Origin: a virus
DNA: 64,000 bases
Direction: 5' to 3' (one strand)
Virus record (IMG/VR): IMGVR_UViG_3300037189_006220
Span: 56,519-120,518 of that record
Below the pieces are notes generated by a model that worked only from the letters and a program-made list of their open reading frames with translations, did not search any database and was not told where the DNA came from. Of this stretch, positions 2,698-57,000 are shown piece by piece (within the stretch, counting starts at the first letter, position 1; every line of letters begins with the position of its first letter). A program made the position numbers and the translations under genes.

Positions 2698-2824
2698 GAG
2701 ACACTCTGAAGAAGACCTTGAGCTTCTCCAAAAAGTTCTCGCTATGCCCAAAGAGGCAATAGAAGATTTACAAAAGCTATTCGCAATTTGTGAGGAACCA
2801 GATGACACGCACGACTTGGGATGA
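2684..2824 (+). CDS. hypothetical protein
   Basis: Short ORF MPKNERHSEE.. filling the gap, overlapping neighbours. Confidence 0.45.
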   Translation: MPKNERHSEEDLELLQKVLAMPKEAIEDLQKLFAICEEPDDTHDLG

Positions 2825-3338
2825 GACGTGGATGGCTGTTGCCGAGACAATGGCTCAACGCTCGCTCTGCACTAATCGTCAGGTCGGCTGTGTCATTGTG
2901 ACTTCCAGCAACCGACCAATGGCTGTTGGATATAACGGTCCTCCGGCAAACTTTAATCGAACCACTCACGAAGGGCTACTCTCTTTTGCTAAATCAGAAG
3001 GATGTAACAACTGGTGTGACCGCGCTAAGTCGCAAGACCGAGGAACAACTTACTCCAACTGTGTCAGCGTCCACGCAGAGGCTAATGCTCTCCTATTTGC
3101 AGACCGCAGAGACTACGCAGGTGGCACAATGTATGTCACTAATCCTTGCTGTTGGGACTGCGCCAAGCTCGTAGCCAACTCAGGCATTAGTCGTCTTGTA
3201 GTGCGACTTTCAGAACGAGACGCTCACTACGATAATGAGTCGTCACTATCTTTCATCCGCTCGTGCGGAATACTTGTAGATATCTTTCCTCCTAAAGAAA
3301 GAGGAGAGATTGGATACTGGGAAGAAGAAGACGCTTAG
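2802..3338 (+). CDS. dCMP deaminase
   Basis: RSLC..RQVGCVI, GYNG, HAEANAL, PCCWDC zinc motifs. Confidence 0.92.
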   Translation: MTRTTWDETWMAVAETMAQRSLCTNRQVGCVIVTSSNRPMAVGYNGPPANFNRTTHEGLLSFAKSEGCNNWCDRAKSQDRGTTYSNCVSVHAEANALLFADRRDYAGGTMYVTNPCCWDCAKLVANSGISRLVVRLSERDAHYDNESSLSFIRSCGILVDIFPPKERGEIGYWEEEDA

Positions 3339-3628
3339 TCTTTCTTAACCCGAACATCGTATTGCTTACGAGGTGGCGGAGTATATCCACGCCTCAGACG
3401 ACTACGCTCACGAGCGGTTGTTCCTCCCCAGATACCAAGCTCTTCATTCTCCATAGCCCACGCTAGGCACTCAATTACATATGGGCATGAGGCACAAATT
3501 TTTTTGGCTAGTACAACCATTGTTGTAGAGTCACCAACACCAGTCTCTGGGAAGAACGCATCTGGGTCAGCACTAGCGCAATGAGGCTCACCCTTCTCAA
3601 AAAAGTCTGGATACTCGGCTTTGCTCAT
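3335..3628 (-). CDS. whiB: WhiB family transcription factor
   Basis: C..DPDAFFP..AKKICASCPY..ECL..A..GIWGG. Confidence 0.93.
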   Translation of the reverse strand: MSKAEYPDFFEKGEPHCASADPDAFFPETGVGDSTTMVVLAKKICASCPYVIECLAWAMENEELGIWGGTTARERSRLRRGYTPPPRKQYDVRVKKD

Positions 3629-4607: not shown

Positions 4608-4829
4608 ATGGAAGAAAAGCTCACGTCTCTTGACCGTTGCGATAGTTGTGGTGCTCAAGCCTATGTCCGTGTCAACCTCGAAAGTGGAGAACTACTCTTC
4701 TGCGGTCACCACTTTAAAAAGAATGAAGACACGCTTGTTCTTAAAGCCGTAAGTATTGACAGCGAACTAGACAAGCTTTACCCAGAACCTAAGGCTAAAA
4801 CTCAGCCAGAACCTCAGGTAGTAGAATAG
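4608..4829 (+). CDS. small actinobacterial zinc-binding protein
   Basis: LT.LDRCD.CGAQAYVRV.L.SGELLFCGHH pattern. Confidence 0.8.
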   Translation: MEEKLTSLDRCDSCGAQAYVRVNLESGELLFCGHHFKKNEDTLVLKAVSIDSELDKLYPEPKAKTQPEPQVVE

Positions 4830-4889
4830 AAATGTGAAAACGCAAGTTTTCCGACATGAGTAATTTCGCTACCTACTCACATAAAATCG

Positions 4890-4950
4890 CCATCCCCCTC
4901 CATCTGGTTGAGTACCACTCCTAGAATATGTGAGGGGGATGGTGTTTTCT
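4890..4950 (+). terminator. stem-loop, probable terminator
   Basis: CCATCCCCCTC/GAGGGGGATGG 11-bp stem followed by TGTTTTCT. Confidence 0.5.
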
Positions 4951-4992
4951 TGACAAAAAATATGTCATGTCTTTTTAAGTTATTTAACATAT

Positions 4993-5020
4993 TTATTCTC
5001 ACTAAGCTTAATGAGAATAA
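4993..5020. repeat. 28-bp near-perfect palindrome
   Basis: TTATTCTCACTAAG|CTTAATGAGAATAA, one mismatch. Confidence 0.85.
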
Positions 5021-5086
5021 GCTGACAATAAATAATTATTATATAAGTTTTAGTGATTGTCTCGGTCTGTTGAGCAGCTCAGAATT

Positions 5087-5095
5087 TGCTAAAAT
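5087..5095 (+). promoter_or_regulatory. extended -10 promoter of RNR locus
   Basis: TGCTAAAAT upstream of micro-ORF. Confidence 0.5.
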
Positions 5096-5165
5096 AGAAG
5101 AACAAACAATCCCCCTCTTGACCAAGAAATTGGTCATTTTTCTTCTGCCCTGAAAGGTCACAAAC

Positions 5166-5249
5166 ATGAATGAATCACAAGACACCGTTGGCGGATACTG
5201 CATCCCCGTAGACCCGATGGACATGCTTCAGTGCGATTCCTGCCAGTAA
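5166..5249 (+). CDS. 27-aa peptide resembling the redox CxxC C-terminal tail of NrdA
   Basis: Not in ORF track; MNESQDTVGGYCIPVDPMDMLQCDSCQ, RBS GAAAGG at 5152-5157. Confidence 0.75.
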   Translation: MNESQDTVGGYCIPVDPMDMLQCDSCQ

Positions 5250-5270
5250 GAATCTAACCCTCGGGTTAAC

Positions 5271-5313
5271 GCCCGGTGCTCCTCGTAGTAGAGTTGAGTA
5301 CCGGGCTTCTTTC
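5271..5313 (+). terminator. intrinsic terminator after micro-ORF
   Basis: GCCCGGTGCTC/GAGTACCGGGC stem + TTCTTTC. Confidence 0.6.
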
Positions 5314-5338
5314 ACCCCTCTAAGACAGCTAGGACATA

Positions 5339-6271
5339 ATGTACGCCCCTGAAACTCTGGTCTTGACATCGTCAGGACACAAGCCTCTTAGTGAGCTTGA
5401 TGGACACATGGTGGACGTATGGAATGGCGAAGAGTTTTCGCTAGTCCTAGTTGGACAGGCTGGAAAAGATAAGCCTCTAGTTACCGTTGTCTTTGATACC
5501 GGAGCAGAGATTACCTGCACTCCAGACCAAACGATGTTTGTCCAGAATGGATACTTCGACCACACAATTTCTCGTAAGCGAGTTGCAGAAGCACTGCCCG
5601 GAGAAAAGATTGTTAAGTCCGAGTTCCCACTCTTAGAGCACGGCACTGAGCTAATTCCTAATGCTTACACCCACGGCTTCTACACAGGAGCAGAACGGTT
5701 TAAGCGTCGCCCCGGAGTTGTATCAAGACTCGCTATCTATGGTGGTCGCAGACCATGTCTAGATGAGCTTGACCTAGACCCTCGGACAGATAAGACTAAC
5801 CTCTACTTCACTACAGAAATGCTTGGAGACTTCGAGGTTCCACTCAGCACTAAGTACTCACTAGAGTCCAAGCTTGAGTGGCTAGCTGGACTTTTTGATA
5901 GTGGTCTTATTAAAAGAAAAATTGGTTCACAACCAATGTGGCATCTCTACTCAAACAACTTTCAGTTTCTTAAAGACATGAAACTTTTCATGCAGACTTT
6001 GGGAAGCGATGTTCGAGTAGTAAAAAACGAAGATATGAACCGTCTTGAATACACACTACGGTTCTCTGGAAGACCGATGCAGAACTTACGAAAGCTCGGA
6101 GTCCCAGCAAAGTATATCACCATCCCTGAAGTATCTTACAAACGACGTGGAGTTGGTTATCCACGAATTGTGAGCATCATCGACAACAACCGCCGTGACA
6201 CGGTTTACACGCTCATGGAAAAGAAAACTCACCGAGCAGTGTTCAACGGCATCTTAAACGCAACCCAATAA
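5339..6271 (+). CDS. free-standing degenerate RIR1-type intein (Hint + LAGLIDADG)
   Basis: YAPETLVLT..VWNGEEFS..CTPD..YTHGF..EWLAGLFD..H.AVFNGIL follows RNR (RIR1) intein blocks; own ATG, AGGA RBS, in-frame TAG upstream, own stop. Confidence 0.85.
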   Translation: MYAPETLVLTSSGHKPLSELDGHMVDVWNGEEFSLVLVGQAGKDKPLVTVVFDTGAEITCTPDQTMFVQNGYFDHTISRKRVAEALPGEKIVKSEFPLLEHGTELIPNAYTHGFYTGAERFKRRPGVVSRLAIYGGRRPCLDELDLDPRTDKTNLYFTTEMLGDFEVPLSTKYSLESKLEWLAGLFDSGLIKRKIGSQPMWHLYSNNFQFLKDMKLFMQTLGSDVRVVKNEDMNRLEYTLRFSGRPMQNLRKLGVPAKYITIPEVSYKRRGVGYPRIVSIIDNNRRDTVYTLMEKKTHRAVFNGILNATQ

Positions 6272-6290
6272 CTAACAAGGAGAAACAACA

Positions 6291-7280
6291 ATGGCAATTC
6301 TAGGAACCGGCATCCAAGAGGGACTCCTCCTGAAGCCAGTCAAATATCAGTGGGCAATGGACTTGTACGACCAAGCAGTTGCCAATACTTGGTTCCCCAA
6401 CGAAATCCAACTAGGCGAAGACATCGCTGACTTCAAAAAGATGTCTGAGGATGAGCAACACGCTATTACGTTCTTGATGTCATTCTTTAACCCATCAGAG
6501 CTTATTGTGAATAAGGCTCTTGCCTTCGGTGTCTACCCTTACCTAAATGCACCCGAGTGCCACCTCTACCTTGCTAAGCAGATGTGGGAAGAAGCAAACC
6601 ACTGCATGTCGTTCGAGTACGTCCTTGAGACGTTCCCTGTAGACCGTAAGAAAATTTATGAACAGCATGTTGCTGTAGACAGCATCAAAGCCAAGGAAGA
6701 CTTCGAGGTCAAGTTCATTAAGCGCATGACCGAAGATACCATTGACATCAACACCGTAGAGGGAAAGCAGGACTTCGTCCGCAACCTCGTGGCTTACTCG
6801 GTCATCATGGAGGGTATCTGGTTCTACTCGGGCTTCATGGTGGCTCTGAGCTTCCGTCAGCGCAACCTACTTCGTAACTTTGCCTCACTGGTGGACTGGA
6901 TTGTCCGTGACGAGAGCCTTCACCTCAAGTTTGGTATCAACCTCATTCTTGAGGTACTCAACGAGAATCCTGAAATTGTCACAGACGAGTTCGCAGCCGA
7001 GATTCAGCAGATGATTTTTGATGCTGTTGACATGGAGATTACCTACAACAAGGAGCAGTTCCCCAACGGTATCCTTGGACTCAACGCTGACTATGTTAGC
7101 CAATACACCAAGTACCTCGCTGACCGCCGTCTTGAGGAGCTTGGATTCCCCCCACACTACAACGTGGGTAACCCTGCTAAGTGGATGGCTGCGGCTAATG
7201 ATACTCTTCAGCTTGTGAACTTCTTTGAGTCCACCAACACAAGCTATGAATCAAACGCATCAGCTGCTACTGGTAAGTAG
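6291..7280 (+). CDS. nrdB: ribonucleotide reductase beta subunit, class Ic-like
   Basis: W.P.EI, EEANH, EGIWFYSGF, RDESLH, NFFE..Y motifs; RBS AAGGAG. Confidence 0.95.
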   Translation: MAILGTGIQEGLLLKPVKYQWAMDLYDQAVANTWFPNEIQLGEDIADFKKMSEDEQHAITFLMSFFNPSELIVNKALAFGVYPYLNAPECHLYLAKQMWEEANHCMSFEYVLETFPVDRKKIYEQHVAVDSIKAKEDFEVKFIKRMTEDTIDINTVEGKQDFVRNLVAYSVIMEGIWFYSGFMVALSFRQRNLLRNFASLVDWIVRDESLHLKFGINLILEVLNENPEIVTDEFAAEIQQMIFDAVDMEITYNKEQFPNGILGLNADYVSQYTKYLADRRLEELGFPPHYNVGNPAKWMAAANDTLQLVNFFESTNTSYESNASAATGK

Positions 7281-7320
7281 TAAGTGATAGGCTCTTTAAA
7301 GAGTCAGTTGCTTTACCAAT

Positions 7321-7362: not shown

Positions 7363-8346
7363 CTACTTAGTCTGCGTAATCCGCACAACTTCGTAGTCTG
7401 GATACCAGATGGGGTGAAGACCAATAGTCTTACCGTCATTAGGAGAGTCGAGCATAAGCCCGTTTCCAGCCCAGAACCCAATGTGACCCGGCATATAGAC
7501 AAGGTCACCTAGACGAGCCTCTGAGCGAGGGATAACCCTATTTTGGTCACGCTGAACTCGCGCACCATGATAGAGGTCAATCCCAAACTTAGAGTACACA
7601 TACTTAGTGAATCCAGAGCAATCGAACCCATAAGCAACATACTTTGTTGAGCGGTAAGGCACTCCCTGATATTTCATTGCTTCATCAAACACTGGAGAGA
7701 CTCCAACCTTAGGCATAGCAAATACACCAGCATATGTATCTATAACCACATCAACTGTATCTCTATGCCAAGCACGAGGATTACCGCTAGTAACTACGAT
7801 TTGCCCCGGCTCATATGTATCTGCCCATGCGCTCTGATGACTTGATACAACAAGTCCCAAACCAATAAGCAACGCAGATACACCAGTTACAGCCCATGTA
7901 CGGCTACGAAAACGGCTTAGAAATGCTACCGGAACTGTTCCCGGAGAGTCACTGCTAATGCTCTCAGAAGCCGTCTCAGGGCTGATTAAGTCCTGTTCTA
8001 CAGCTTCTTTTACTCTCTCAATGACAGTCTGCCCAATTGCATGAGTAATGGTTCCAGAATCAAATTCACTGAAAACACTCTCAACTGCTTGAACAGCATC
8101 TGAGACAATACTATCGGCTACCTCTTTGGTAACCTCTTCCATTGTTCCAATTCCAACAACGGACTTTAGACAGTCGGACTGCCATCTTGCTAGTCCAACA
8201 CCAGAAGCATCAGCCCCGACTACTTTTTCGTAGTCCTTACGTGCCCTGTCTAGCACGTAACTGGTTCTGTCAGAAACAGCTTCGCTGGAGTTAAATCTCC
8301 ATTTAGTTCGTAGCTGTTCGAGTTCGGATTTTTGTTTCTTATTCAC
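7363..8346 (-). CDS. membrane-anchored NlpC/P60 peptidoglycan endopeptidase
   Basis: C-terminal GVPY, FDCSGF, GDLV, GHIG; central TM segment. Confidence 0.85.
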   Translation of the reverse strand: MNKKQKSELEQLRTKWRFNSSEAVSDRTSYVLDRARKDYEKVVGADASGVGLARWQSDCLKSVVGIGTMEEVTKEVADSIVSDAVQAVESVFSEFDSGTITHAIGQTVIERVKEAVEQDLISPETASESISSDSPGTVPVAFLSRFRSRTWAVTGVSALLIGLGLVVSSHQSAWADTYEPGQIVVTSGNPRAWHRDTVDVVIDTYAGVFAMPKVGVSPVFDEAMKYQGVPYRSTKYVAYGFDCSGFTKYVYSKFGIDLYHGARVQRDQNRVIPRSEARLGDLVYMPGHIGFWAGNGLMLDSPNDGKTIGLHPIWYPDYEVVRITQTK

Positions 8347-9029: not shown

Positions 9030-9923
9030 CTAAAAATCTCCGGGCTGAACTTGGAAACACTTAAGACCAATCTCACGCCACATATCAACAACCTGCTGAC
9101 GGTCATCAAATACTCCACGGACATTGTATTTATCCGCAATGTGCTTGTAAAACAGCTCGTGCTTTACAATACTATCCTTACGAACATCCCCAGACGGACG
9201 CATAAATAGCTCGTACTCTCCAACATGCATCTTGAGCCAATGCTCTGTCTCGGAGCGGTGGTCTTCTGAGCGACCAGACATGATAATGATTTTGTTCCAG
9301 TGGCTTAGGTCACGAAGAACTTTTGCCACACTAATATCAAGAATATCCTCGTGCGCCCGAGACGCATCATAGATATCCCGAGGGTTATCAGGATTGAGGT
9401 GAGCTAGTGTGCCATCGATATCAAAAAGGTACGCGTCGTCAGCATCCTTACGCGGAGTATAGGTGACAAAGTCAGAGGAAGTCTTGGTGTACAGCGGAGG
9501 AGGAAGAAGTTCTCCGCTCTTGGTGTAACGCTTGTAGAAGTCAGCAATGACCCCCTCCCCAACCTTCCGAGAACGCTTACGGTCACGGTCAATAGCCTCG
9601 GCTAAGAGGATAGGGAAGTCTTGATACTTCACCGAGTAGTCGTAGTGAGAAGCCAAGTCCAGAACACTACGAACGTGCTTATCATTAAGGTTCGTATTAT
9701 CGAGGACAATATCTAACCCATCTGACATAGCCGAGCGCATGATTGATTCCTGCACACGAGTTACCGAAGTCTCATTGACTCGGATATACCTACCAAAGAG
9801 CATGAACCGGATATCGTCACGGTTGATACGAACGCGCTCACCCTTGGAGTTTTCAACCCACTGGATAGCCCACGAGGACTTACCACTAGCAGGGATACCT
9901 CGGCAAATAATCAAAGTCTTCAT
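9030..9923 (-). CDS. pnk: polynucleotide 5'-kinase/3'-phosphatase (T4 PseT-like)
   Basis: N-terminal GIPASGKS, INRDDIR; C-terminal HAD DIDGT, SGR, K..D, DDR. Confidence 0.93.
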   Translation of the reverse strand: MKTLIICRGIPASGKSSWAIQWVENSKGERVRINRDDIRFMLFGRYIRVNETSVTRVQESIMRSAMSDGLDIVLDNTNLNDKHVRSVLDLASHYDYSVKYQDFPILLAEAIDRDRKRSRKVGEGVIADFYKRYTKSGELLPPPLYTKTSSDFVTYTPRKDADDAYLFDIDGTLAHLNPDNPRDIYDASRAHEDILDISVAKVLRDLSHWNKIIIMSGRSEDHRSETEHWLKMHVGEYELFMRPSGDVRKDSIVKHELFYKHIADKYNVRGVFDDRQQVVDMWREIGLKCFQVQPGDF

Positions 9924-10617: not shown

Positions 10618-11340
10618 TTATGGAGATACTCTACCATTTTTATTGAAGGCAGACCAAGTCGCAGGAAAAAGAATCTGAAACTCTTCTTCCATCTTCATTG
10701 CGACATTCTCAATCTCCCACTGAGGCTTGGTAGAAAACGTAGCGTTCCCATCATCAACACGCAGAGATAGAAATGCCATCAGCGAGCGAGCATTACAAGT
10801 TGCGTACATCTCAGAGAATAGACCAACAGGAAGCACGGAACGAGCAACCTCATTAGCCATACCGTCCTCTAGAAGTTCTTTGTACGCCTTCCATGCCTTA
10901 CGGTAGGACTTTTCCATTACGGCATTAGTGAGTGGCGTAAGAGCAGGATGACCAGATACCAAGTCGGGGTGTGCAGATGACCCCTGCTGAATAAGAGGAC
11001 GAGTCGGAGGGTATACCCAGAACTTTGGCTCCATCTCCTTATAGCGAGCAGATACCTCGTTGTACGACCAGCCAATGCGGTGACGCATGAACTCACGGAA
11101 TACAAAGATAGGAGCCGAAATACGGAACGTCATCGAGTTGTGCTCAAAGGGAGACCCATGTCGGTTCTTTACCAAGTAGTTAATAAGCTTGGCATCTGCT
11201 CCCGGGAGATATTCCTCAAGGTCAAGACCAGTGGAGACACGAGCTGCTGCCGCAATTGATGCATCTGACCCTACGCTCTGTACAAGCTCAACAGTCATTT
11301 CATTACTTAGCTGAATCACGTAGTCTTCCGATTTCATCAT
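10618..11340 (-). CDS. thyX: flavin-dependent thymidylate synthase
   Basis: H.SPFEH and RHRIGWSYNEVSARY motif. Confidence 0.95.
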   Translation of the reverse strand: MMKSEDYVIQLSNEMTVELVQSVGSDASIAAAARVSTGLDLEEYLPGADAKLINYLVKNRHGSPFEHNSMTFRISAPIFVFREFMRHRIGWSYNEVSARYKEMEPKFWVYPPTRPLIQQGSSAHPDLVSGHPALTPLTNAVMEKSYRKAWKAYKELLEDGMANEVARSVLPVGLFSEMYATCNARSLMAFLSLRVDDGNATFSTKPQWEIENVAMKMEEEFQILFPATWSAFNKNGRVSP

Positions 11341-54034: not shown

Positions 54035-57000
54035 TAGACGGAACCTTTACGCATCTGGAATGCAAGTTCGCGGGAGACGGCAGAGGCAAGTTCTGTCTCG
54101 CTCATTCCCGGGGATGGGTGTACGGAGATATTAATAGTTGGAGCTTGTGCTGGAGTATTACTAGTAAATGTAGCAGACCCATTGTTGAGCTGATTAAGAA
54201 GTGGCAGATAACGCTGGGTAGCTGCTGAGTTCATAACATACTCACCGGCAGAAAGCATCGCTGGGACACGGTCATCACGAGGTCCACCAGCACCGGAGAT
54301 AAATCCTCCATTAGCTAGAGCCTTGATAAATCCACCGTTCTTAAATCCGCTGAACTCGAAGGGAACGTCAAACACACCAATCTTAATATGTCCCTTCTTT
54401 TCGGCAGACTGCACACCAACCTTAACTGTAGTGTTCGCACTCTTGATGGCATCTTGAACTGTCTTAGGGAGCTTGTCAAACTCTTTTGTTCCCGGCTTAA
54501 TATCGATTACAGGAGGGGTATACCCAGCAATCTTATTTCCAGTTGTATTTAGGAACTGGTCAATTGTAATTTGACCCTTATCAAGTGCAGCTTGCGCGGC
54601 TGCCTCAAGTGGGGTAGTCACACCATCTGCAGCGATTGAGGCAAGAGCCGGTCCGTAGTTTGCAGACATTTGAGTAGCACTCTTCTGCGCTTCCTCAAGA
54701 AGAGAAGAGTTTCCAGCTTTAACCTGCTTGATAATCTCGGCTGATGTGAGTCCACCCTGCTCAAGAACTTTAATGGTTTCCGTACTAACACCCATTGCAG
54801 CTAGTGTTGCATCGTTAGCCATCTCTTCCATAAATGCCTTGTTTTTAGCTTTAAGGCTGGCTTGGAAATCTGCAACTGTAGTAGTGTGACCATCCACTAC
54901 TTCTCCGACTTTACTGAGTTGTGCGGTAGCAGCTCCAGACCCTTGAGCTAAGGCAACAAGCGAGTCAACTTGACGCATAACAGCTACAGCACCATCTCCA
55001 CGAGCAAAGGCTAGTTCTTTTTCCTTATTAATGGAGCCATCTTGATTAGTAATAACTACACCAAGCGCCGTAGCTTGCTCTTCCAAGGCGGTTTTATACT
55101 TAGGCATATTATCAAGAGCATCAATCTGCTGTGCAGTACTAAGTTCCTGACTTATCATCAACTTCTTGAAGCCATTTTCAGCAGTTGGGAGGTCAGTAGC
55201 TGCTACGTTAGCAAGCGAGTCCCCATAGGCACCCCAAGCCTTATGTAGTTCTGATAGAGCAGTATGGTAGTGAGCTAGACCGGCACGACCAGCAGCGTAA
55301 ACATTACCTGTTTTCTTGCCCGCATTGGTAGTTTCTTGTGCCCACTCCCCAGTTCTAGTCTTAACTTCACCAAGAGCTTTATGGACTCCCTCGACATCTT
55401 TCAGAGAGTCCTTAATAGGACTATCAGGAATTGATAGTAGAGCATCTCCCCAAGCTTTAGTAGCACTAGTACCGTTTTTAAGGTCTTCAGTTGTAGCTGT
55501 TACAGCCTTATCAAGGTTTTGCTGGTTAATTGAGATAACTGCAAAAATTCCACCAATAATAGCAGCAAGTGGCAGAATGATTGGTAGGAGTGGAGCAAGT
55601 GCTCCCCAGATAGCAGCTCCCATCCCAATAGCACCGACCTCTGCCGCAGCCTCGGAGACAGTAAGGGCATCATTTGCAACGGCAAGTCCACCTACAGCAA
55701 CAGCATTCTCTCCCTGAGCTACAGCAAGAGCCTCTGTAGCAGCTACGAGTTCTGCTTTTGTGCCTGTCATAAATGCTTCTGCAGCGTACTGCTCGGCATC
55801 TGCAAGGGCTACCTCAGTAGATGCAACTGCTTCTTGTGCCTTAGCAACATTCAGTCGCAGGGTAGCCATTGCAAGAGCTTGTTTAGATGCTGCTAGAGAT
55901 GCAGTAGCTGCGGTCTCTTTTGCTGATGCAGCAGTATTTTTAATTGCCCAAGCCTCAAGAGCAACTAGTGGCTTGAGTACCTGTCCAATAATTCCCTTGA
56001 AGATAAGGACAGCAGACGAGGCAAGTTTAAATACAAGACCGAAAGCAGATATTGTAGCAAAAACAGGACCTAATACATTAAGCAAAGGACCTATTGCTTT
56101 AACTACAGACTCAACTCCAGCTGCTACAAATCCAAGAGCATTAAAGAACGCAATAATAGAGCCGGAGTCTGCAAATACAGCAAGCATCTCCATAAGACGG
56201 TTAACAAGAATAGCCAATACTGGAGCAGTCTTTACAGACTCCATTACGACATTTCGGAAGGTAGCAGCTCCTGACTCAAGAATTTGCCAGAACTGACCAA
56301 TAGCAGGACTTGCTCCCGCAGCCATAATTGCGTGAATGACAATATTAAGAGTATCTAAAATTTCGGTAAGATTCTTAGAAGCTGCTTGGAAGTAGTTAGC
56401 CATAAATCCTACTGGAATATTCTTAAACCCAGCAGTAGCTTTTTCAATCCACTGAAGCATAATATCTCCGCCCGAACCCGGACCGATATTTGCTTGAATC
56501 ATATGACCTAGACCACCAAAGATGTTTCCAAAGGCATGACCAAGACGAGCCATTAAGTCGCCAGCAGTAGTGAAGAATTTTTGTAATTCTCCTGAAGCAG
56601 ACTTAGTATCTAGAAAACTCTTAAATGCGTTTGACTGCTTCTCTAGGAAGGTAGCAAATCGTTGAGCAAGAGGGGCAACTGCTTGAAGAAGGGTAAGTGA
56701 GTTGCCCAGCATGACAGCAGCTGTACGACCAAAAGTAGATAGTAGCCCAGCTGAGCTAGTAAAGATTGACCCAAGCTTGCCTAGGTTTTCAGAGCTAGTG
56801 AGTGCTTGAGCAATTGCTTTAGCAGCTCCACCCATTGCCCCACCCACCTCGGTGAGACCAGTCTTCAGTACCGGGAATGCTTTTGTTGCCAAAAGGTCAA
56901 TAGCATCAGTAAGGGGTGTTAGGAACGCATGTGCCACAGACTCTTGAAGGTCTTTAAAGAGTGGCTTCATTGCATAGAGATGCTTAACAAACTCAATCTG

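Follow-up and report, generated by a model that had tools for sequence, protein, structure and literature searches.

A free-standing NrdA-tail micro-gene in an actinophage-like genome: a detached tail of class I ribonucleotide reductase that probably acts in trans

The stretch of DNA considered here, referred to throughout as the window, comprises the final 64,000 nucleotides (positions 56,519 to 120,518) of IMG/VR record IMGVR_UViG_3300037189_006220, a virus sequence of 120.5 kb that carries direct terminal repeats; its gene content, which includes WhiB, a deoxycytidine monophosphate (dCMP) deaminase, PNKP and NlpC/P60, looks like that of an actinophage. The subject of this work is a micro-gene within it, located a short distance upstream of nrdB, the gene for the small, radical-generating subunit of a class I ribonucleotide reductase (RNR), and separated from nrdB by an open reading frame (ORF) of intein-like character (Table 1). 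The encoded peptide, MNESQDTVGGYCIPVDPMDMLQCDSCQ, has 27 residues and ends in a cysteine pair, C23-D-S-C26-Q27-stop; its frame measures 31 residues from stop to stop. An earlier note on this DNA had read the peptide as a free-standing version of the C-terminal redox tail of NrdA, the catalytic subunit of the same enzyme. On re-reading, both ORF and translation matched exactly, and the GAAAGG put forward as the ribosome-binding site is indeed present, 8 nucleotides ahead of the ATG.

Table 1. Features of the window that are discussed in the text, with positions counted from the first nucleotide of the window.
Feature	Position	Strand	Remarks
Micro-gene, free-standing NrdA-tail peptide, 27 residues	5166..5249	+	ATG at 5166, TAA at 5247-5249
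Shine-Dalgarno-like GAAAGG	5152..5157	+	8 nucleotides 5' of the ATG
TGcTAAAAT, extended -10-like word	5087..5095	+	read from the sequence
Terminator-like hairpin (TGACCAAGAAATTGGTCA) and T-run	5119..5146	+	just 5' of the ribosome-binding site
GC-rich hairpin (5271-5306), then UUCUUUC	5271..5313	+	from folding of a 101-nucleotide region
Free-standing Hint and LAGLIDADG-like ORF, 310 residues	5339..6271	+	Pfam Intein_splicing, E 0.0012, below cut-off
nrdB, class I RNR small (radical-generating) subunit	6291..7280	+	PF00268, E 5e-76
dCMP deaminase	2790-3338	+	
WhiB	3335-3628	-	PF02467
DUF7455	4608-4829	+	
NlpC/P60 peptidase	7363-8346	-	
PNKP-type kinase/phosphatase	9030-9923	-	
ThyX-like ORF	10618-11340	-	

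The micro-gene is a real, conserved gene under purifying selection, and this much is firmly established. With NrdB as a handle, 33 related phage loci were collected, several of them truncated by contig ends. A small free ORF ending in C[DE][SG]CQ-stop, in a stop-to-stop frame of at most 82 residues, is present in 18 of the 33, while the peptide of loci L024 and L025 is more divergent; L005 and L026, which have no local copy, belong to phage genomes in which the peptide gene is found elsewhere. Each of the five phage records that were searched contains a single copy (E 1.5e-18 to 7.6e-17). A purine-rich motif resembling a Shine-Dalgarno sequence stands within 25 nucleotides upstream of every one of the 16 phage homologues examined. 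In the last 19 codons, the ratio of non-synonymous to synonymous differences per site (pN/pS) is 0.34 for phage genes, 0.29 for host genes adjacent to nrdA and 0.25 for other host copies, with synonymous sites near saturation (pS 0.56-0.81). Codons for Cys, Gln, Asp, Pro and Ser switch synonymously, and the invariant residues D, P, C, C and Q are preserved; in the family alignment (A3) the invariants are D, P and C-x-x-C-Q-stop, with C-x-x-C-Q in 47 of 47 aligned members. A chance ORF was considered as well, and is ruled out by this conservation (pN/pS 0.25-0.34 at near-saturated pS).

The family extends well beyond phages. A profile built from 16 phage peptides retrieved 481 clusters (50% identity) at E ≤ 0.001 from 1.84 billion proteins; the top 150 of these all measure 25-151 residues, and nearly all were matched at their extreme C-terminus. 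Domain libraries do not recognise it: a Pfam search with the window peptide returned nothing, an NCBIfam search with the peptide produced nothing beyond a match at chance level (E 0.032; 13 bits, where the cut-off is 189.8), and a sequence search of the PDB, with both the peptide and its profile, gave no hits at E ≤ 10.

What the peptide is becomes clear from comparison with NrdA proteins that still carry their tails. Among 401 sampled genomes of the same phylum, 33 had an NrdA match at E ≤ 1e-90; the 3' ends were taken from 31 of them, leaving out G001, in which the arrangement is split, and G272. In all 31 of these more distant actinobacterial NrdAs, a fused tail of the form CE[AS]C[QD]-stop closes the chain. 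The two nearest fused NrdAs, with 66% whole-protein identity to the NrdA of the related phage L021, end in ...LDVVDGSACPIDPQERLQCESCQ-stop. A hidden Markov model (HMM) of 47 micro-ORFs found both with E-values of 5.1e-8 and 7.5e-8 among 3,575 frames, and aligned end-to-end with their last 22 residues.

A second locus scan, seeded from one of these nearest fused NrdAs, gave 80 loci, and here both states of the tail could be told apart. In 53 of the 80, NrdA is fused and ends in ...VDGxACPVDPMERLQCESCQ-stop; the genera include Aeromicrobium, Nocardioides, Microlunatus, Cutibacterium, Tessaracoccus, Jiangella, Serinicoccus, Cellulomonas, Actinotalea and Demequina. A further 26 are split, and those with named genera are all of Microbacteriaceae type; several are titled at a higher rank only, and one metagenome-assembled genome bears the label Nanopelagicales and one Cellulomonadaceae. 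The last locus (L230) was left unclassed, the NrdA end of L231 looks frameshifted, and L250, although counted as fused, is doubtful, reading into the peptide via an alternative frame of ...RRGFG.... How close fused and free forms can be is illustrated by the fused end of a Demequina NrdA, ...MVDGVACPVDPMEALQCESCQ-stop, which differs at 3 of 21 positions from the free peptide of phage L013, ...IIDGYACPVDPMEALQCESCQ-stop. The identification as an NrdA tail made in the earlier note is thus borne out, and the similarity to NrdA termini that it proposed looking for exists. As the same sequence occurs fused within NrdA, the free peptide is a tail detached from NrdA, with fusion as the ancestral state. 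On the strength of these alignments, the homology of the peptide to the C-terminal tail of class I NrdA is firmly established.

If the tail has been detached, the corresponding NrdA chains should be found without it, and this is the case. Three related phages (L021, L028 and L030) have the gene order peptide, nrdA, nrdB; in L021 and L030 the free intein-like ORF follows the peptide gene. The NrdA of all three ends in ...APKKGFGFASAKN-stop, without a cysteine pair. That of L021 is of class I, its best PDB match being P. aeruginosa NrdA (5im3; E 9e-180). Its cellular relatives (72-77% identity, with Microbacteriaceae-type titles) provided 80 host loci, 78 of which have a small ORF, ...VPVDPMD.LQC[DE]SCQ-stop, between nrdA and nrdB. 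The other two are L091, which is cut by a contig end, and L072, where the copy is elsewhere in the genome. NrdA in the 78 peptide-flanked loci ends in ...RGFG(F)G..-stop and has no cysteine pair; the exception in sequence is L107, whose NrdA ends in a different stretch that is also free of cysteine.

In the hosts, the two genes are tightly linked. The inferred start of the micro-ORF overlaps the nrdA stop (as TAATG, TGATG or ATGA) in 49 of the 78 loci and follows it by 1-20 nucleotides in 25, and its frame relative to nrdA may be 0, +1 or +2 depending on the host genome. Such proximity could also mean that the working form is an NrdA fusion made by frameshifting or stop-codon read-through, in which case the small ORF would be no more than the 3' portion of a recoded gene. 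Its position directly after or overlapping the nrdA stop in 74 of 78 host loci would suit this idea, as would L057, L064 and L068, where it lies in frame, one codon past the stop. However, with frames 0, +1 and +2 occurring in different genomes, no single recoding rule fits; start codons with Shine-Dalgarno-like motifs are present; a monocistronic host copy with its own operator, Shine-Dalgarno sequence and terminator is located far from nrdA; and the phage ORF lies upstream of nrdA, or in genomes that have none. Recoding is therefore very unlikely. Covalent continuity with the NrdA chain was not found in 78 of the 80 host loci, where the peptide is a separate ORF, and the start/stop overlaps together with the varying frames suggest a separate gene that is translationally coupled, rather than one recoding event. 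The in-frame ORFs of L057, L064 and L068 have GTG starts; these three loci may mark how the split arose, or may permit occasional read-through to a fused form.

The co-occurrence of the two parts is exact. Among 121 genomes of Microbacteriaceae species, the peptide is present in 53 and a close NrdA (≥ 68% identity) also in 53, and the two sets are identical. The remaining 68 genomes have the peptide in no case, and their NrdA matches either show about 30% identity or are lacking.

The picture in the hosts is extended by additional copies, with 1-5 peptide copies per genome. One conserved stand-alone copy, encoding a peptide of 27-28 residues, is located upstream of two MaoC-like genes and murB (neighbours named from sequence). 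It has a GGAGG ribosome-binding site and a hairpin terminator, and is monocistronic and far from nrdA. Approximately 100-200 nucleotides 5' of this gene lies an element of two partially palindromic 16-bp boxes, ACACTACATGTAGTGG and TCnnGTTATATAGTGG, separated by 17 bp (L125-L129, L133, L138, L141 and L144); the box pair is present upstream in 7 of the 9 stand-alone copies scanned, and the element is conserved in the alignment of 9 out of 10 copies. The same pair, with a start-to-start distance of 32-33 bp, is found about 100-260 nucleotides 5' of the start of the NrdA match in at least 30 of the 80 host loci, and a 14-nucleotide core of the box (≤ 2 mismatches) occurs in 27 of the 80, within them only upstream of nrdA. 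NrdR operators are laid out as two 16-bp boxes with a 15-16-bp linker, according to the abstract-level account in PMC13584703. By its layout, the box pair before the stand-alone peptide gene looks like an NrdR-type operator. No Rfam family reached its gathering score near the host copies, except tRNAs, so that no known riboswitch or leader accounts for the conserved upstream element. The operator core is absent, at ≤ 2 mismatches, from the window and from the whole phage genome. The phage-based profile scores stand-alone host copies above nrdA-adjacent ones (57.1 versus 45.5 bits in G001).

Two side observations concern these host copies. Gene callers sometimes read through the box region, which yields spurious 'proteins' of 90-150 residues (P0018, P0033, P0105 and P0113). 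Further peptide copies exist at L132, L136, L137 and L146 (and L143); their neighbours, again named from sequence, are an integrase and an XRE-like regulator at L132, and tail-fibre, holin and lysin-like genes at L136 and L137. Since these copies lie beside integrase or phage-like genes, carriage by prophages is suggested, and prophages of these hosts may carry the peptide gene alone.

A structural basis for action in trans is offered by a complex model of the L021 NrdA (805 residues; alignment of 35 rows) with the 31-residue peptide of the same phage (alignment of 47 rows). The interface score, ipSAE, had a median of 0.64 over three runs (0.70, 0.61 and 0.64), and the best of three controls reached 0.02. 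At least 73% of contacts agree between runs, and the predicted local distance difference test (pLDDT) score of the partner is 61 or higher. Of 80 solved complexes, 58 attain the mark applied to ipSAE, as do 2 of 110 mismatched pairs; these counts hold only roughly here because our own alignments were supplied. On the active-site side, the predicted interface consists of NrdA residues 229-230, 442-444, 446 and 461 and peptide residues 25-31, that is, the CxxCQ end. It includes the invariant C230, and C444 in an N-L-C-T-E motif, and L461 lies two positions past the invariant C459; in E. coli NrdA, the counterparts of C230, C444 and C459 would be the two active-site cysteines and the radical cysteine. 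A second predicted contact involves NrdA residues 648-662, 686-690 and 709 and peptide residues 12-20. Structure prediction with NrdA, one of the checks suggested in the earlier note, hence places the CxxCQ end in the active site, for the pair of a relative. The model supports, rather than demonstrates, binding of the peptide in the catalytic site of NrdA, and fits a tail that reaches the active site.

The model also bears on the possibility that the peptide serves NrdB instead, either as a thiol or metal helper for its metal-radical cofactor or as a miniature metal-binding module formed from two CxxC peptides. The peptide is retained together with nrdB in this phage and in at least four relatives that have no nrdA, its stop codon overlaps the nrdB start in 4 of 16 phage loci, and public records call it 'subunit beta'. 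Yet where the sequence is found fused, in 53 of 80 loci, it closes NrdA and not NrdB; the peptide and tail-less NrdA occur in precisely the same genomes; the host gene is translationally coupled to nrdA; and the model puts the CxxCQ end into the active site of NrdA. Two phages have the peptide gene at a distance from nrdB (about 30 kb in G527), and the 'subunit beta' name looks like propagated annotation. A role as an NrdB helper is accordingly improbable. The name is borne by Clavibacter proteins: family members of 25 and 28 residues are called 'ribonucleotide-diphosphate reductase subunit beta' in NCBI and UniRef entries; this is a misnomer, because the peptides are homologous to the tail of the alpha subunit. 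At least one annotator seems to have noticed the link, given the UniRef name 'Ribonucleotide reductase, alpha 2 subunit'.

This relationship to NrdA raises the question of which NrdA the phage peptide would meet. No nrdA was detected in the 120.5-kb phage record, either with PF02867 or by tblastn with the L021 NrdA (best E 1.1), an absence that is less certain than in the two relatives rated 100% complete, because CheckV rates the record as 71% complete despite its terminal repeats. Four related phage records, of which two are 100% and one is 96% complete, likewise contain no NrdA match over the cut-off, and nrdA is within reach in only 3 of the 33 phage loci. In a phage without nrdA, a circumstance that the earlier note could not see, the peptide would have to serve the NrdA of the host. 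The remaining parts of the system are phage-encoded. Compared with 79 host NrdBs, the window NrdB shows 77-84% identity and has the same C-terminal stretch, NPAKWMAAANDTLQLVNFFESTNTSYE; the C-terminal end of NrdB binds the alpha subunit. A phage thioredoxin (PF00085, E 8e-30) is encoded at G000:C1:48401-48700, outside the window (C1:56519-120518). On the simplest reading, the catalytic subunit of the host receives beta subunit, tail and thioredoxin from the phage.

Alternatively, the phage copy could be a decoy or regulator, that is, a mimic of the tail that blocks or re-tunes host NrdA through active-site occupancy or titration of thioredoxin. The lack of nrdA in the phage speaks for this, a peptide that enters the active site, as modelled, could in principle inhibit, and there are extra copies in prophage-like host regions (with integrase by L132, and tail- or lysis-like genes by L136 and L137). 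Against this, the phage peptide is nearly identical to the stand-alone host copy, for example VGGYCIPVDPMDMLQCDSCQ versus VGGYAVPVDPMDMLQCDSCQ in P0074, and keeps all invariant residues; moreover, it is accompanied in the phage by NrdB, thioredoxin, a ThyX-like protein and dCMP deaminase, a set that fits the production of more DNA precursors rather than fewer. We consider a decoy unlikely.

The signals around the micro-gene in the window are less uniform than the peptide itself. The earlier note had also claimed an extended -10 element upstream and a terminator downstream, and had proposed that the latter would let the peptide accumulate above downstream products. The -10-like word is present; its role as a promoter is unproven, because a terminator-like hairpin with a T-run stands between it and the ORF. 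This hairpin probably ends the upstream transcription unit. The word is absent from the output of a promoter scan that requires a -35 element. Downstream, a stable GC-rich hairpin is found: the 101-nucleotide region after the micro-gene has a folding energy of -32.5 kcal/mol (z = -2.58), matched by 2 of 200 shuffled sequences. The hairpin is a possible intrinsic terminator or attenuator, and is not among the results of a simple terminator scan. GC-rich hairpins follow the ORF in 9 of 16 phage homologues, by reading of the folds, and those of L001 and L029 resemble that of the window; the feature is thus recurrent and not universal. In 4 of the 16, the stop codon of the peptide ORF overlaps the nrdB start as TAATG. 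The idea of accumulation fits the window and the monocistronic stand-alone copies of the hosts, but it does not hold across the family, since several phages have the ORF translationally coupled to nrdB. A blastn search of window positions 4830-7300 against the phage collection gave no match, and Rfam gave sub-threshold hits only on the window.

The location of the ORF upstream of nrdB, with a hairpin between the two, could also bring to mind a cis-acting leader peptide for nrdB, and the reading ...VGG|YC... in the window peptide could suggest the precursor of a ribosomally synthesised and post-translationally modified peptide (RiPP), with a double-glycine leader and a cysteine-rich core. Neither is credible to any real extent. 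The GG is not conserved, with DG, NG, GE, DE and others found in its place, and the neighbours that were read (nrd genes, the homing-endonuclease-like ORF and ordinary phage genes) include no maturase-like gene. The position relative to nrdB varies between upstream, downstream and 30 kb away; conservation is kept at the level of amino acids, not of RNA or position; and homology to the NrdA tail already explains the sequence.

Between the micro-gene and nrdB, the free-standing Hint and LAGLIDADG-like ORF occupies the slot in which relatives have nrdA. It shares 39% identity over 311 residues (E 2e-68) with an intein inside the NrdA of L028, a protein of 1,120 residues in which the intein spans residues ~450-756; in L021 and L030, a homologue of the ORF precedes an intact nrdA. 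The ORF begins with M-Y-A-P-E-T, without Cys1, and ends in ...NGILNATQ, without His-Asn, so that splicing looks lost. Judged from these similarities, it looks like an NrdA intein turned into a free homing-endonuclease gene, or like a relic of nrdA loss. It is context, outside the mechanism of the peptide. A different RNR gene may be present in L013, which also bears the free peptide gene and nrdB. About 5 kb 5' of nrdB in that phage (L013:3-998, + strand) lies the end of a long ORF (703-residue frame) that contains ...NPCAEQSL... and ends in ...YCTTDACEIKFVKDNQAN; it has a weak PF02867 hit (E 3e-4, below the cut-off) and may be a divergent class II-like RNR with a cysteine pair of its own. In the window, one ORF carries an RHR...S motif, by which we presume it to be ThyX-like; together with the WhiB, DUF7455, dCMP deaminase, PNKP-type and NlpC/P60 ORFs it forms a nucleotide-metabolism cluster typical of actinophages.

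Taken together, the best explanation, and in our judgement a probable one, is that the peptide is a detached class I NrdA redox tail that acts in trans, with the redox role resting on inference and one model. In this explanation, the ancestral fused tail was severed from NrdA in the Microbacteriaceae-type host lineage and became a separate peptide. In the proposed mechanism, the reduced peptide would dock on NrdA via its conserved Y-x-V-P-V-D-P-M-D segment, and its terminal C-x-x-C-Q would enter the catalytic site and reduce the active-site disulfide that is formed in each turnover. It would then depart as an intramolecular disulfide and be re-reduced by thioredoxin. By supplying the peptide, its own NrdB and thioredoxin, the phage would provide those parts that can limit or be consumed, and would thereby drive the tail-less NrdA of the host towards deoxynucleotides for phage DNA synthesis. 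The function of a diffusible disulfide shuttle, as envisaged in the earlier note, is a reasonable reading of the co-occurrence, the shared operator boxes and the complex model; we likewise infer translation, thiol-disulfide exchange, recycling by thioredoxin, and the pairing of phage peptide and NrdB with host NrdA.

Several points weigh against this explanation. The modelled pair consists of the NrdA of phage L021 and its own peptide, not of the window peptide and a host NrdA, and the model may in part echo solved RNR structures with the tail in the active site. A search for sequencing runs that contain the region yielded one, which may be the source sample, and no RNA run. The profile of the micro-ORFs matches no PDB chain. 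With the most distant NrdAs (35-45% identity), the tail resemblance is confined to CE[AS]CQ, which as a sequence match is not significant alone. The boxes are spaced 16-17 bp apart by count, compared with 15-16 bp in the abstracts for NrdR. The completeness estimate of the window phage, given above, belongs here too, and the 68 of 121 Microbacteriaceae genomes with neither part make the split arrangement lineage-specific.

The arrangement can be set against three known systems. The first is the fused class I tail, found in NrdA (R1) proteins, which has a cysteine pair, spaced as CxxC or less often as CxxxxC, among the last few residues. According to the accessible part of PMC4390871, thioredoxin and glutaredoxin are barred from the RNR active site, and a C-terminal cysteine pair relays electrons to it; the available text of PMC9531940 counts a C-terminal CxxC in 1,737 of 2,022 class I sequences. 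The peptide described here belongs to the same sequence family, has its CxxC near the chain end, and presumably does the same electron-relay job. Unlike the fused tail, it is unattached, being the product of a separate gene of 21-36 codons with its own start codon; hosts also hold extra stand-alone copies, and phages without nrdA carry the peptide too.

The second system is the split class II enzyme NrdJa/NrdJb of Pseudomonas aeruginosa, which follows the same logic, in that catalytic barrel and reducing C-terminus reside on separate chains. As in that enzyme, the catalytic chain lacks a C-terminal cysteine pair, with the peptide gene present in 53 of 53 such genomes and in none of 68 others. 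The differences are considerable. NrdJb is folded, with IscU-like and zinc-finger domains, as far as the accessible text of Burnim et al. goes (bioRxiv 10.1101/2022.04.23.489257), and NrdJa and NrdJb form a stable (NrdJa-NrdJb)2 complex of a B12-dependent class II RNR, whereas a peptide of 21-36 residues is involved here, with a class I partner, and the peptide has paralogous stand-alone and phage-borne copies. Homology to NrdJb was not found either: the partner is of class I, and the 27-residue peptide has no Pfam, NCBIfam or PDB match.

The third comprises the RNR-dedicated redoxins, namely thioredoxin, glutaredoxin and NrdH, which are likewise small dithiol carriers in the chain of RNR reduction. 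In contrast to these, the peptide has 27 residues and no thioredoxin fold, and it replaces the tail of the enzyme itself, one step further in. That reductant modules move between RNR genes is known from Facklamia ignava, in which a glutaredoxin domain is fused to NrdB, as stated in the accessible part of PMC6187632. A literature search, with supplements and most subscription journals outside its reach, brought up no description of a class I tail that is split off; the class II NrdJa/NrdJb was the only split RNR that it revealed.

In class I and class II RNRs, the C-terminal cysteine tail counts as an integral part of the large subunit. A free tail would change how RNR turnover is limited and regulated, since the dose of peptide becomes independent of the dose of enzyme. 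It would also provide a natural system in which exchange between tail and active site can be studied with a synthetic peptide, explain why these NrdAs appear 'tail-less' in sequence surveys, and correct a widespread misannotation of proteins of 25-28 residues. For phage biology, the micro-gene would be a metabolic gene of 84 bases, of a kind that gene callers may miss, and would illustrate how a phage can contribute no more of a host enzyme than those parts that are limiting or expendable, namely beta subunit, tail and thioredoxin. We lean, by a small degree only, towards the broader view that there is a lineage-wide class I RNR with a third component, a diffusible dithiol peptide of 21-36 residues with a stand-alone supply under nrdA-type boxes, and that phages exploit it, often with nrdB and thioredoxin and without nrdA, to overdrive the catalytic subunit of the host. 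If true, the peptide gene would be among the smallest auxiliary metabolic genes known, and its product would be the first free 'tail' subunit of a class I RNR.

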